A stretch of 64,000 nt of DNA from a phage. Below the pieces are notes generated by a model, which ran no database searches, was not told the origin of the DNA, and saw nothing but the letters and a program-made list of their open reading frames with translations. Positions 74 to 61,956 of this stretch are shown in pieces. The stretch lies in the sequence record PZ452610.1. One strand, 5' to 3'. How positions within the stretch are numbered: the stretch's first letter is position 1; each line of letters starts with the position of its first letter. A program made the position numbers and the translations under genes.

Positions 74-110
74 ATAGGACTACTATAACATAGTCCTATC
101 AGTTTGTACA
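74..110 (-). promoter_or_regulatory. early-type promoter with palindromic stem-loop (PeSL-like cassette)
   Basis: Inverted repeat TAGGACTA/TAGTCCTA around minus-sense TATAGT -10, -35-like GTACAA ~17 nt upstream. Confidence 0.5.
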
Positions 111-343: not shown

Positions 344-379
344 AGGTCTATAGTATCAACAACTACAGACCTTGTAAAC
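344..379 (-). promoter_or_regulatory. early-type promoter cassette
   Basis: plus gtaaac (minus GTTTAC -35) and tctatagta (-10 region) upstream of ORF 112..312. Confidence 0.45.
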
Positions 380-391
380 AGTTTGGTGAAA

Positions 392-1348
392 TTATTTGAA
401 AGGTTTTACCATATGAAAATTTTGTTTGAAACGCTTGACGTAATCGTCGTGTCCTAAGCTTTGATACATACTTACTACTTTGCCATAGTTCTCCCAGGCA
501 TACTCACGGAACCAGCCTGATGTGATTGAAGTACAGACCTTTTCTAATGCCATCATAAAACTATCACGAGGATGGATTTCAAAGCCATTAGGAATCTGAG
601 AACGTTCTAACGCTAGTACACATGTTTCTTCATATACACCGGCCAATTTGACCATTTCCGGAAGTGATTCAAACTTCTCGCGTGAGGTCATTACTTCAGA
701 ACCGTCTTTCATATAAAACGTATAAGCCGGACGGTCTGTTAGTGCAATGGCTTCATGAATAGTATCATGGTCATATGTATAGATGTCATCTTTAAAGAAC
801 GCACTTTTAGAAGTGTCAAGAACCGGGTGAGCATAGTTCAAGGTTTCTTTCTGGCGTTTCAGCATAATTTCAGTAAGTTCATCGTTAAGTGTAACACCTT
901 TACCACGAAGATACTGAATATGGTTCATAGTCTTTAAAAAGAATGGATTATTTTTCTTGAAACGATGAGACATCTTAATTGCAAGACATATCTCAGGAGT
1001 TGCCCAGTAAAACCCGTTCAAACGGTCTTTAGTCAAATTTTTCTTGGCGTATTTTAAAAGGTCATAAGAAGACGTGAAATCTTCAGGAGTGAGTTCACCG
1101 ACTAATTCACGGACATTAGTGATTGCCGGAACAATATATGCTTCAAAATGAGTTTCGCGTCCATTATGGAAGCATTTGAAAACTTGGACATCAGGGTTAT
1201 CTTGGTGAACATATACACCCATCATTTGATTTTTGAATGCATTCCAAGAACCTTGGTCCGCAATAAAGTCCCAATCACTATTTTTAATAGCGCTAGAATC
1301 AATAAGACCGTGATAGTGAAGTGCACGAGAACCAATAACTAACATCAT
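392..1348 (-). CDS. hypothetical protein, possible nucleotidyltransferase-fold N-terminus
   Basis: 318 aa ORF, ATG ATG start with GAGGAA RBS; N-terminal GS...SDWD arrangement loosely resembles Pol-beta-type NTase motif (weak, from inspection only). Confidence 0.6.
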   Translation of the reverse strand: MMLVIGSRALHYHGLIDSSAIKNSDWDFIADQGSWNAFKNQMMGVYVHQDNPDVQVFKCFHNGRETHFEAYIVPAITNVRELVGELTPEDFTSSYDLLKYAKKNLTKDRLNGFYWATPEICLAIKMSHRFKKNNPFFLKTMNHIQYLRGKGVTLNDELTEIMLKRQKETLNYAHPVLDTSKSAFFKDDIYTYDHDTIHEAIALTDRPAYTFYMKDGSEVMTSREKFESLPEMVKLAGVYEETCVLALERSQIPNGFEIHPRDSFMMALEKVCTSITSGWFREYAWENYGKVVSMYQSLGHDDYVKRFKQNFHMVKPFK

Positions 1349-1376: not shown

Positions 1377-1616
1377 TTAAATTTCACGACATGCGATATT
1401 ATATTCATCCCAGAGGTCATCATGTGAAGCCTCTACCAATGGAACGATTGTACCGTTTATGTCTTCATTATAAGGGCAAATTGTACAGTGCGCATCTTCG
1501 AATCGGATGCCTTTGTGTTCAGATTTTTTATAACGCATATCGAATATCTTTGCAAACTTTTCACGAGTAATGGTTTTACCAACCACTTTGGTTCCGATAC
1601 TTTCGTAATAAATCAT
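1377..1616 (-). CDS. hypothetical protein
   Basis: 79 aa ORF immediately downstream of early promoter cassette 1636..1674; Cys-containing (CTICPY). Confidence 0.5.
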   Translation of the reverse strand: MIYYESIGTKVVGKTITREKFAKIFDMRYKKSEHKGIRFEDAHCTICPYNEDINGTIVPLVEASHDDLWDEYNIACREI

Positions 1617-1635: not shown

Positions 1636-1674
1636 GATAGGACTACTATAACATAGCCCTATCTTGTTGTAAAC
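1636..1674 (-). promoter_or_regulatory. early-type promoter with palindromic stem-loop (PeSL-like)
   Basis: gataggactactataacatagccctatc palindrome plus gtaaac (-35 GTTTAC on minus). Confidence 0.5.
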
Positions 1675-1678
1675 TGTT

Positions 1679-1876
1679 TTAGCAAGAATAACTAGATGAT
1701 ACCCAGCCTTGAACAGTGATACTATTGTGGGATAATGAGATCGCGTCCTGGAGATTCAGACCTGCGTTATCTTCAATCCATAATGTAACTTCTTCGCGTT
1801 CTTCTGTTGCAATTTGGAACAGGTTTTCCAGAGCAGCTACTGCCGTACGTACAGCACAATCTAATTCGCGAGACAT
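1679..1876 (-). CDS. small protein with conserved C-terminal GWVSSSYSC tail (family member 3)
   Basis: 65 aa; ATG at 1876 preceded by TAAGGAA; C-terminus shared with the two upstream ORFs. Confidence 0.6.
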   Translation of the reverse strand: MSRELDCAVRTAVAALENLFQIATEEREEVTLWIEDNAGLNLQDAISLSHNSITVQGWVSSSYSC

Positions 1877-1885
1877 ATTGTTTCC

Positions 1886-2158
1886 TTAGCAAGTGTGAGA
1901 AGATGCGACCCAACCACCAGTTTCGAGGCTCAGGTTGTAGTCGTATTGGTAAACGTCAGCCCATTCAGCATAACCGTTTTTTGTACAACGTTCAAGATCG
2001 GCTTTAAGATGTCCGGGTGAATGATAGGTTCCACCCATACCATAAGCTGGGTACAAGTTGAATGTTGTGTTTTGTTTATCAGCAATTTCTTTGGCAGCCT
2101 CAATAGCTGCATAGATTTTTGCTACAGCTTCAGCCAGTTCGGTTTGTTCTTTAGACAT
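1886..2158 (-). CDS. small protein with conserved C-terminal GWVASSHTC tail (family member 2)
   Basis: 90 aa; ATG at 2158 preceded by TAAGGAA; translationally coupled to neighbours. Confidence 0.6.
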   Translation of the reverse strand: MSKEQTELAEAVAKIYAAIEAAKEIADKQNTTFNLYPAYGMGGTYHSPGHLKADLERCTKNGYAEWADVYQYDYNLSLETGGWVASSHTC

Positions 2159-2167
2159 AATGATTCC

Positions 2168-2473
2168 TTAGCACAACGCAGAAGACGAAACCCAAGCACC
2201 TTCAGTAATAACGTAACCATTACCTTCACGCTTAACATCACCACCATTATTTTCAATTTCATTTTTCATCCACTGGGATACGATTTCACCCTTAGGATAA
2301 TAAGTACGACCGCTACCATAATCACCTACAGAAAATGATACGGCATATTGGTCTGCGATCTTTGTTGCTTCTTCTTCGATGCGTTCAGCTTGATTCAGAA
2401 GTTTATAAATTGCATCTGAAGCGGATTTGGCATCATTAAACTCTGGTACTTTAATTTCAATAATCTTACTCAT
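2168..2473 (-). CDS. small protein with conserved C-terminal AWVSSSALC tail (family member 1)
   Basis: 101 aa; start overlaps stop of upstream ORF (ATGA); shares GxxYxPxG and C-terminal tail with paralogs. Confidence 0.6.
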   Translation of the reverse strand: MSKIIEIKVPEFNDAKSASDAIYKLLNQAERIEEEATKIADQYAVSFSVGDYGSGRTYYPKGEIVSQWMKNEIENNGGDVKREGNGYVITEGAWVSSSALC

Positions 2474-2829
2474 TTTCTACATTCCTTAATAAAGTTTTCG
2501 ATTGTTTCATTTTCACGTTTAGCTAGGAGTTCATTATAACTAATCATTTGAGAAGCGTAAACCTTTTTATTTTTCTTGTTATGGTTTATAAAATCGTAGT
2601 AAAAATAGACTACAGTACAAAATGATGCGATGGATGCAAAGGCTTGGGTATACCGTAAGTCCTGCCATTGGTCTGTGAATCCGCCAGTGTTCCCTATAAA
2701 TCCTAACACAACGCCGTCAATAAGAAATCCAACTAATCCAAAGGCAAATCCCATGCCAATACTCATAATAAAAATTAGAATGTTCTCACCAAGAGAAGGC
2801 CATACGGTTAAGAGTTGAGGCTTTTGCAT
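2470..2829 (-). CDS. putative small membrane protein
   Basis: 119 aa with long hydrophobic stretch (IFIMSIGMGFAFGLVGFLIDGVVLGFIG). Confidence 0.55.
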   Translation of the reverse strand: MQKPQLLTVWPSLGENILIFIMSIGMGFAFGLVGFLIDGVVLGFIGNTGGFTDQWQDLRYTQAFASIASFCTVVYFYYDFINHNKKNKKVYASQMISYNELLAKRENETIENFIKECRK

Positions 2830-3023
2830 CTTATTTCCTTAACGAATTCCATAGCTTCTTCATATTCATACTTTTTAACAGCTTCATCATACTGAGCTTG
2901 GGCTTTTGCGCACTGAACTTTCCATTCTCTTAATCGGGCTCTGTGATGACGTCCTTGGTACCAATATCCCATCCAGTTAATAGGCATTAATAAAAACGGT
3001 ACAATAAGTGGTGCGACGAACAT
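2808..3023 (-). CDS. putative small membrane protein
   Basis: 71 aa, N-terminal hydrophobic helix (FVAPLIVPFLLMPINWMGYW) then charged tail; weak RBS. Confidence 0.45.
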   Translation of the reverse strand: MFVAPLIVPFLLMPINWMGYWYQGRHHRARLREWKVQCAKAQAQYDEAVKKYEYEEAMEFVKEIRCKSLNS

Positions 3024-3064
3024 TAATGAAAATGCTGCATCAGACGATATAACTTCACTAGAAT

Positions 3065-3205
3065 CTAAAACGGCTCCCCTATAATCATAAAGATTAAAAA
3101 TGCTAAAGCTAAAATAGGGCCAAATAGTACTTCATTTGGGATTAATTTACGCTTGTATTCATATGCCCAGGGCTTAATTGGCATGTACAGGGTTGGCTTT
3201 GACAT
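3065..3205 (-). CDS. possible 46-aa membrane peptide
   Basis: ATG at 3205, hydrophobic core VLFGPILALAFLIFMIIG; overlaps 3' end of ORF 3174..3770; weak RBS. Confidence 0.25.
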   Translation of the reverse strand: MSKPTLYMPIKPWAYEYKRKLIPNEVLFGPILALAFLIFMIIGEPF

Positions 3206-6632: not shown

Positions 6633-6709
<77 letters not shown>

Positions 6710-6712
6710 GAT

Positions 6713-6789
6713 TGGTGACCCAGACCAGATTCGAACTGGTAACCTTTCCCTTATGAGGGGACTGCTGCTAACCATTGAGCTACAGGGCC
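6713..6789 (-). tRNA. tRNA with CAU anticodon (Met or Ile-type)
   Basis: Canonical T-arm ACCAG-TTCGAAT-CTGGT, anticodon loop CUCAUAA, encoded CCA; acceptor and D stems have mismatches. Confidence 0.5.
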
Positions 6790-61140: not shown

Positions 61141-61956
61141 TTAACAATTTATAGACCAAGTCCATTTAGACGAATCTAAAGGAAAGTTTTGAATCGTCCA
61201 CCATGGCTGCATATCGGTTGGTCCTGGAGTTCGCCAAGTATACGGATTCGACGGAGTGCCAATTTGATTAGGCCATGCACCTGGACTTGTTGCACCAGAT
61301 TCTTTAAGCAAATCTGCCAATCGTTTTAAAAGGTCTTCACGATCTGAATCTGAATTATGCTCTGGCGGAACTAAACGAGATTCAATATCATCCCATGTGT
61401 GTACACGTTGTGCAGTGCGAGGAATATCATCACGTTCACCACGAGCCAACCAATAAATCGGTACATTAAGAATTTCTGCCGCATGGTCACAGTGATGAGC
61501 TAAATCGTCAACGTAACAAATCACGTTATACTTTGTTTTGGCTAGTTCGAATAATTGTTCTTTTGAAGAATCATGACCACACATCATTACTTCAGAGAAA
61601 GCGCCTGGGAACAAAGCATTCAAATTAAATTGTCTATTCAATCGAGCATCAATTGAATCGCCTAGTGCCGTCACGGCTACAAAATTATAGTCTTCTTTTA
61701 GTTTATTGATAACTCGAAGAGCATCTGAATAAGGCGCTAAGTAACGAATAAAATCAGAGCTATTATATTTTTCTATTAATTGTTTACCAAGGTTATCGTC
61801 GGTATTGAACAGTTTACCAGGAGAAATAAATTTTTCGTCCTGAATCATTTTTAAAATATGTTCTAATGGAAGATTATATTTTTGGGCAAAATAAGGAAGT
61901 CCAGATTGCCAACTTAAACATACACCATCAATATCAGTCAAAATAGTAGGCTTCAT
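61141..61956 (-). CDS. HAD-superfamily hydrolase-like protein
   Basis: N-terminal ILTDIDGV matches HAD motif I (DxDG); 271 aa. Confidence 0.6.
   Translation of the reverse strand: MKPTILTDIDGVCLSWQSGLPYFAQKYNLPLEHILKMIQDEKFISPGKLFNTDDNLGKQLIEKYNSSDFIRYLAPYSDALRVINKLKEDYNFVAVTALGDSIDARLNRQFNLNALFPGAFSEVMMCGHDSSKEQLFELAKTKYNVICYVDDLAHHCDHAAEILNVPIYWLARGERDDIPRTAQRVHTWDDIESRLVPPEHNSDSDREDLLKRLADLLKESGATSPGAWPNQIGTPSNPYTWRTPGPTDMQPWWTIQNFPLDSSKWTWSINC

Follow-up and report, generated by a model that had tools for sequence, protein, structure and literature searches.

A widespread phage gene module that links a predicted nucleotidyltransferase to small acidic proteins with a shared Trp-Ser-Cys tail

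Introduction

Several enzymes with the nucleotidyltransferase (NTase) fold nucleotidylylate a side chain of another protein, as in the pairs GlnD/PII, GlnE/glutamine synthetase, MntA/HepT and DrrA/Rab1. In MenT1, MenT3, MenT4 and AbiEii, an NTase lobe is joined to a helical lobe and the enzyme is paired with a single antitoxin, while ANT(2'')-Ia (AadB) and LnuA are compact enzymes of approximately 160-180 amino acids (aa) that act on small-molecule substrates and have no partner proteins. Large phages also encode Pol-beta NTases, namely RlaP (PF10127) and CCA-adding enzymes, which place one to two nucleotides onto RNA 3' ends (PMC7824862, PMC12776372). Here we analyzed a 64,000-nt stretch of phage DNA (sequence record PZ452610.1; the window) in which an ATG-to-stop open reading frame (ORF) of 318 aa at 392..1348, on the minus strand, encodes a protein with two Pfam domains, DUF7277 and DUF7275. 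From its predicted structure, the N-terminal domain is very probably a minimal Pol-beta-type NTase fold, and the gene is accompanied in almost all lineages by genes for small acidic proteins with a common C-terminal tail. Gene arrangement gives good support to the view that the enzyme and the small proteins form a conserved phage module and work together. This enzyme-partner module is previously undescribed, widespread and virus-restricted.

Compared with the described systems, the protein appears in its predicted model to share with MenT1, MenT3, MenT4 and AbiEii a bi-lobed build of NTase domain plus helical lobe. Unlike in these enzymes, however, the helical lobe (DUF7275, approximately 210 residues) is far more conserved than the NTase lobe. 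The lysine of motif III and the aspartate of motif IV, which are 15-22 residues apart in MenT (K137 and D152 in MenT1), might correspond here to the invariant K125 and D193/D195, which are approximately 70 residues apart. In place of a single antitoxin there are one to six fixed-tail paralogues unrelated to MenA or AbiEi, and the family is restricted to viruses. Among 49 family members, only DUF7277 and DUF7275 were found at E values up to 10, with no DUF1814/AbiEii match, and the PADLOC models for AbiE were blank as well. ANT(2'') has a long spacing between the glycine and the DxD pair in common with the 318-aa protein but no detectable profile similarity to it, and neither AadB nor LnuA has a DUF7275 domain. 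The likeness to GlnD and PII is one of functional analogy, in that an NTase domain would be combined with a second domain carrying a His/Asp cluster and would have a small protein as its target; the genetically linked partner likewise recalls MntA/HepT. GlnD, GlnE, MntA and DrrA gave no sequence or fold match in our searches, and the acceptor proposed here is a serine as opposed to the tyrosine of those systems. For RlaP, PF10127 matched none of the 49 members, and no ligase gene was found among the conserved neighbors.

Small acidic proteins with an invariant tail

Upstream of the enzyme gene and on the same strand, the window carries genes for three small acidic proteins. They encode 65 aa (1679..1876, minus strand; PHROG 4882; tail ...QGWVSSSYSC), 90 aa (1886..2158, minus strand; PHROG 899; YGMGGTY motif; tail ...GGWVASSHTC) and 101 aa (2168..2473, minus strand; PHROG 899; YGSGRTYYP motif; tail ...GAWVSSSALC), and no Pfam family was found for any of the three. 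The tail was first seen when the neighboring genes of distant phages were compared, in the form ...G-x-W-x-[AS]-S-S-x-x-C, and is described more generally as W-x-x-S-x(1-4)-C with the cysteine as the final residue. In an alignment of 30 sequences with a mean identity of 22%, three positions never vary: the tryptophan, the serine at W+3 and the cysteine at the very end. Among 223 distinct tails, one residue lies between serine and cysteine in 51 and three residues in 160; in 31, the W..S..C pattern occurs once more internally, as in ...EDWQSSSCYGEG...VWHSSSC. The proteins are strongly acidic (median isoelectric point 4.3), number from zero to six paralogues per locus, and share a layout of N-terminal amphipathic helix, short strand, YGxGGxYxP loop, variable acidic linker and tail.

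The tail and the body of these proteins go together. A hidden Markov model (HMM) of the body, with the tail stripped from model and targets alike, retrieved 255 ORFs, of which 251 bear the tail, and within the window it matched only the three ORFs described above. A 271-aa ORF far away in the window (61141..61956, minus strand) ends in ...KWTWSINC and fits the loosest form of the tail pattern; since the body HMM misses this ORF, the resemblance is probably coincidental.

Linkage of the enzyme gene to the small-protein genes

The connection between enzyme and small proteins was quantified in 80 loci from IMG/VR, taken as 20-kb windows with 15,278 ORFs in total; their enzymes share 40-98% identity with the 318-aa protein. 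In this sample, 181 of the 190 ORFs with the tail motif are on the same strand as the enzyme gene and at most 3 kb upstream of it, at least one such ORF is present in 73 of the 80 loci, and the tail ORF accompanies 16 of the 17 enzyme clusters defined at 60% identity. Tail ORFs often end 1-60 nt before the start codon of the enzyme gene or overlap it. Variant tails (e.g. W-N-P-S-S-Q-G-C) explain three of the five cases missed by the strict pattern, namely loci L084 and L033 and Acinetobacter phage Apostate. When shared neighbors were compared across 21 lineages (at most 55% identity), the small-protein family alone was widely shared, with 16 loci, and three loci hold a sub-family of it that is not known to be additional; the runner-up, nicotinamide phosphoribosyltransferase (NAMPT), reached five loci.

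The same arrangement is found in an Otagovirus, a Phapecoctavirus, a Twarogvirinae phage, jumbo-phage contigs and all five contigs from metagenome-assembled genomes (MAGs) that carry the enzyme gene. The linkage also holds in the reverse direction: when small-protein matches were drawn from a collection of 5.8 billion proteins, a DUF7277+DUF7275 gene follows, 0-2.4 kb downstream, in each of the four that are on long contigs. In phage T4, e.2 abuts e.3 exactly where the phage of the window carries the whole block, and a scan of 66 kb of T4 early regions found no tail ORFs and no matches to the small-protein HMM. Two anonymous families, PHROG 2141 (the enzyme) and PHROG 899, thus become one testable system. 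This linkage to upstream tail-bearing proteins, the most informative feature of the locus, was missing from the first-pass annotation of the window, which had been made from the sequence letters and dealt with the enzyme gene.

The N-terminal domain has a predicted nucleotidyltransferase fold

The first-pass annotation had reported a 318-aa ORF, without giving its strand, and had pointed to a glycine-serine followed by an acidic D-x-D pair as loosely reminiscent of Pol-beta-superfamily NTases. Both the ORF and the residues are there: the peptide IGSRALHYHGLIDSSAIKNSDWDF covers residues 5-28, in which the glycine-serine is G6-S7 and the acidic pair D25-W-D27. Motifs this short would be common by chance. 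We counted conservation over 262 homologues of at least 250 aa and built an AlphaFold2 model from 49 homologues (pLDDT, the predicted local distance difference test, 93.6; pTM, the predicted template modeling score, 0.87); structural statements throughout this work come from predicted models. G6 is conserved in 99% of the homologues, S7 in 97%, D25 in 99% and D27 in 100%, and position 69 is acidic in all of them, with glutamate in 248 (95%) and aspartate in 14 (5%).

In the model, the NTase-fold domain comprises aa 1-105 (1034..1348, minus strand). The segment V-I-G6-S7 (G6-S7 codons, the hG[GS] motif, at 1328..1333, minus strand) is predicted to cap helix 6-12 at its N-terminus; D27 would lie within strand 26-31 and D25 immediately before it, so that D25-W-D27-F fits the [DE]h[DE]h pattern and provides the candidate catalytic DxD (1268..1276, minus strand); and E69 (1142..1144, minus strand), placed on strand 64-73, is a candidate third carboxylate. 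The predicted alpha/beta core, consisting of beta1-helix-beta2 and further strands, superposes on solved NTases, and the motif residues appear to occupy the Pol-beta NTase positions. Fold, motif placement and conservation together make it very probable that the N-terminus is a minimal Pol-beta-type NTase fold in which the G-S, D-x-D and E residues are all intact, and the structure prediction that had been suggested as a check thus speaks for the earlier assignment, as does the retention of the acidic pair among homologues.

The earlier caution about spacing was also accurate, as 17 residues separate S7 from D25 in comparison to 9-13 in the classical motif. Since a similar spacing of 15-17 (WIGGGWAIDARLGRVTRKHDDIDL) occurs in ANT(2''), an NTase of solved structure, the long distance from glycine to DxD is a trait of a subgroup and does not exclude the protein from the Pol-beta NTases. 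Similarity to known NTases is structural only: no NTase Pfam model matched any of the 49 members even at E = 10, and an hhalign comparison with AadB gave a probability of 0.2%. The nearest folds, as judged from the model, are those of enzymes that add single nucleoside monophosphates to hydroxyls or to RNA 3' ends, and cGAS-like cyclases do not appear among them.

The C-terminal domain is the best-conserved part of the protein

The region that had been described as large and unassigned is indeed large, from approximately aa 106 to 318 (395..1033, minus strand), although it does have an assignment, to Pfam DUF7275. It is predicted to be all-helical and is the best-conserved part of the protein: K125, H128, H194, D195, H198, E240, E241, E248 and R249 are invariant in 262 of 262 homologues, and R281 is found in 261. 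A structural search with this domain left it mostly unmatched, with no convincing hit, and no resemblance to the folds of LanC, LanB or lyases emerged. We also considered a metal site made of conserved cysteines in the enzyme and rejected it, as C243 and C272 vary in the versions from Acinetobacter and Gordonia phages, where C243 is replaced by tyrosine.

A model for the module and its alternatives

As the most economical model, we tentatively propose that the serine of the tail is nucleotidylylated by the enzyme, a proposal that may well turn out to be wrong. The conserved C-terminal domain would provide a docking site for the tail of a small protein, next to the active site of the NTase, and the enzyme would move a nucleoside monophosphate from a nucleoside triphosphate to the hydroxyl of the invariant serine (protein O-nucleotidylylation). 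This transfer may arm or switch early effector proteins that belong to a diversifying family. In the second domain, the His/Asp/Glu cluster might bind the terminal cysteine or carboxylate via a metal or, by analogy with the HD domain of GlnD, could remove or process the nucleotide. We favor this model because ANT(2'') and LnuA, whose folds are the nearest, transfer nucleotides to hydroxyl groups, and because the partners hold the serine and the terminal cysteine invariant while the rest of the protein drifts. If the enzyme does modify the tails, viruses would be seen to nucleotidylylate proteins in a new way, or perhaps to use a novel chemistry of crosslinking, and the variable small proteins would be good candidates for effectors of host takeover or counter-defense.

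A number of observations weigh against serine nucleotidylylation or reduce the force of the linkage behind it. The linkage of the genes is equally compatible with small proteins that serve as regulators or targeting subunits, and MenT1, the best structural match to the model, acts on tRNA rather than on protein. Since the sampled loci are related to one another, a Fisher p-value overstates the association, and the lineage counts are the fairer measure. In the Menderavirus phage Moby the tail genes lie just downstream of the enzyme gene, and tail-bearing neighbors were not seen in CC31 (L027) or beside the compact enzyme version of a Gordonia phage. An apparent fusion of a small protein to the enzyme (P0233, 377 aa) was rejected as a gene-calling artefact and is a singleton: in its DNA (L102 107-1240, an ENA metagenome contig), a TAG stop comes after ...GPACW, with a ribosome-binding site and then a GTG start codon behind it, and the read-through presumably came from a gene caller that applied a recoded genetic code.

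The main rival to serine nucleotidylylation is an RNA nucleotidyltransferase in the manner of MenT and AbiEii, which would extend the 3' ends of tRNA or other RNA either for shutting off host translation or for repairing ends damaged by host defense nucleases. In that case the small proteins would plug or steer the active site as inhibitors, timers or adaptors of specificity, much as the 68-aa MenA1 blocks MenT1, and a regulated tRNA transferase of this kind would mean that phages share a weapon of bacterial toxin-antitoxin and abortive infection (Abi) systems. We consider this possible but rather doubtful: the DUF1814/AbiEii profile does not match, the catalytic strand has the classical DxD where MenT has [ST]xD, an antitoxin would not be expected as a diversifying set of up to six paralogues that all keep one tail, and genes for RNA ligase or Pnkp are not consistently nearby. 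The composition of the tail suggests another alternative, a maturation pathway resembling those of ribosomally synthesized and post-translationally modified peptides (RiPPs), where the NTase would activate the serine, the C-terminal domain would eliminate the nucleotide to leave dehydroalanine, and the terminal cysteine would close a thioether (lanthionine-type) ring or form a warhead. Such a pathway would agree with an invariant serine and terminal cysteine two or four positions apart (i+2 in 51 and i+4 in 160 of the 223 tails), with multiple precursors of variable body upstream of one enzyme, with a fold class that acts on hydroxyls, and with a strictly conserved second domain bearing acid/base residues, and it would imply nucleotidylylation-driven lanthionine-type crosslinks on whole proteins early in infection. 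We nonetheless judge it unlikely, as nucleotidylylation is not part of any known lanthipeptide pathway, the C-terminal domain lacks any likeness to LanC, LanB or lyases, the cysteines of the enzyme are not universal (the C243 replacement described above), the supposed precursors are folded-looking proteins of 60-170 aa that do not resemble leader-core peptides, and the comparison of neighbors in 21 lineages found no linked protease or exporter gene.

Two further explanations fit the evidence least. An O-nucleotidylyltransferase for small molecules, like ANT(2'') or Lnu, could modify a metabolite or render an antiphage or antibiotic compound inactive, with the small proteins having nothing to do with it; this is quite improbable, given that it leaves the lineage-wide, specific and reciprocal linkage unexplained, that ANT(2'') shows no profile similarity (the hhalign value above), and that the extra domain of 210 residues does not occur in ANT(2'') or Lnu. 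The first-pass annotation had tentatively put forward an anti-defense or RNA-modifying enzyme as a candidate; the anti-defense reading, in which the protein would make, degrade or sequester second messengers against CBASS, Thoeris or Pycsar, we regard as very improbable indeed. It would suit an NTase-fold protein whose accessory gene lies in a variable region and is expressed early, and the surroundings do contain NAD genes (NAMPT in 5 of the 21 lineages, a gene for an ADP-ribosyltransferase at two loci and SIR2 at one), but our search for a cGAS/DncV-like (CD-NTase) fold or a CBASS cyclase profile came back negative, and with no cGAS-like cyclases among the nearest folds the proposal found no support.

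Family distribution

The assignment of the gene as encoding a two-domain protein follows from the ORF, Pfam, PHROG and AlphaFold2 results. Pfam DUF7277 matches aa 2-101 (E 1e-27, 97.1 bits with a cut-off of 27), DUF7275 matches aa 120-305 (E 2.5e-78, 262.7 bits with a cut-off of 27), and PHROG 2141, annotated as 'unknown function', matches with E 4.5e-150. By tblastn, 734 deposited phage genomes contain homologues, and the hosts of these phages include Escherichia, Acinetobacter, Aeromonas, Pseudomonas, Vibrio, Klebsiella, Gordonia and Streptomyces. When 1.84 billion representative proteins were searched with a profile, 1,603 clusters at 50% identity were recovered, nearly all of approximately 300 aa with both domains. 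By comparison, a scan of 185,579 bacterial and archaeal species, with one genome each, returned five hits, all in MAG contigs, so the DUF7277+DUF7275 family is essentially viral. This large and near virus-only family has hitherto been catalogued just as two domains of unknown function; full-text literature searches by its Pfam, PHROG and RB69 ORF names found no paper on it and no published function. Searches of PDB sequences with phmmer and hmmsearch yielded a spurious match to PsaB only, NCBIfam gave only a sub-threshold match to HisJ, and PADLOC had zero matches for the 318-aa protein.

Departures from the usual two-domain form were also observed. In BFVD, longer DUF7275 proteins with a shared predicted fold come from two giant viruses of eukaryotes, Sylvanvirus (A0A3G5AJ90, 508 aa, Foldseek E 1e-14) and Satyrvirus (A0A3G5AE53, 571 aa, Foldseek E 8e-12), and entries with DUF7275 only (168 aa) or DUF7277 only (117 aa) suggest that the domains are separate proteins in some phages. 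An enzyme on a 167.7-kb contig (IMG/VR 650627003; L080 9395..) has an N-terminal extension of approximately 100 residues with no tail motif in it. At the other extreme, gene 14 of Gordonia phage WilliamBoone (L005 2821-3600) encodes a compact 259-aa version with a much shortened NTase lobe, which retains the G-S, the D-W-D and the C-terminal His/Asp/Glu residues and is located approximately 1.3 kb upstream of a cluster of seven tRNA genes.

Gene surroundings and transcription

The first 3 kb of the window are 100% identical to Escherichia coli O157 typing phage 3, and a 98%-identical relative is classed as Mosigvirus (RB69-like T-even phages). The record of an annotated relative notes the 318-aa gene as the RB69ORF134c homologue, and the gene lies among early genes, with the e.2-side genes on one side and e.3 on the other. 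Just past the module, in the region of 2808..3182 in the window, is a homologue of e.4 (L087 3309-3683 in one of the sampled loci); in Shigella phage JK42, and likewise in the GenBank record of JK45, it is this gene, outside the module, that bears the putative label 'sulfurtransferase', which we set aside. Two tRNA genes, tRNA-Arg(TCT) and tRNA-Met(CAT), are at 6633..6789 (minus strand), approximately 5 kb from the enzyme gene. We considered closeness to tRNA genes as a clue to function and dismissed it as weak, because all carriers are large phages; tRNA genes are close only in the Gordonia phage.

NAD-related genes recur within approximately 5 kb of the enzyme gene in other loci, which the clustering of such genes in islands may by itself explain. 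They include NAMPT (L036 4444-5925, L076 4422-6032, L078, L089 and L092; Pfam-confirmed for two), a SIR2-family gene in phage TSP7_1 (L006 6206-6933), and a putative ADP-ribosyltransferase gene that adjoins the enzyme gene in Acinetobacter phage Apostate (L002 4853-5167), with a homologous ORF near the enzyme with the N-terminal extension (L080).

Between the small-protein genes and the enzyme gene is a 79-aa ORF of PHROG 3723 (1377..1616, minus strand), which probably shares a transcript with the enzyme gene; as a conserved neighbor, it was not seen outside T4-like phages in the comparison of neighbor families in 21 lineages. A site resembling a T4-type early (sigma-70-like) promoter by consensus match only, TTTACA-17-TATAGT with TG (1645..1673, minus strand), precedes the 79-aa ORF and then the enzyme gene, and its sequence, GTTTACA...TGTTATAGT (1673..1645, minus strand), sits in a hairpin cassette. 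Early expression of the 318-aa gene, as the first-pass annotation had it, is plausible in light of this promoter-like site. Just past the stop codon of the enzyme gene, a hairpin AGGTCT...AGACCT (344..378, minus strand), which overlaps a second early-promoter-like site, marks the 3' end of the unit; phage SA79RD has a terminator annotated at the equivalent place, and in the 98%-identical phage annotated terminators flank the pair of 79-aa ORF and enzyme gene on both sides. A cassette of approximately 60 nt is in fact repeated before successive small genes, at 82..110, 350..378 and 1645..1673 (all minus strand), with GTTTACA...TA(T/C)(A/T)(G/A)T in a hairpin and then CCTATCAAAACAAAT; from their sequence, these repeats look like T4-type early promoter/terminator units multiplied by duplication along this part of the window.
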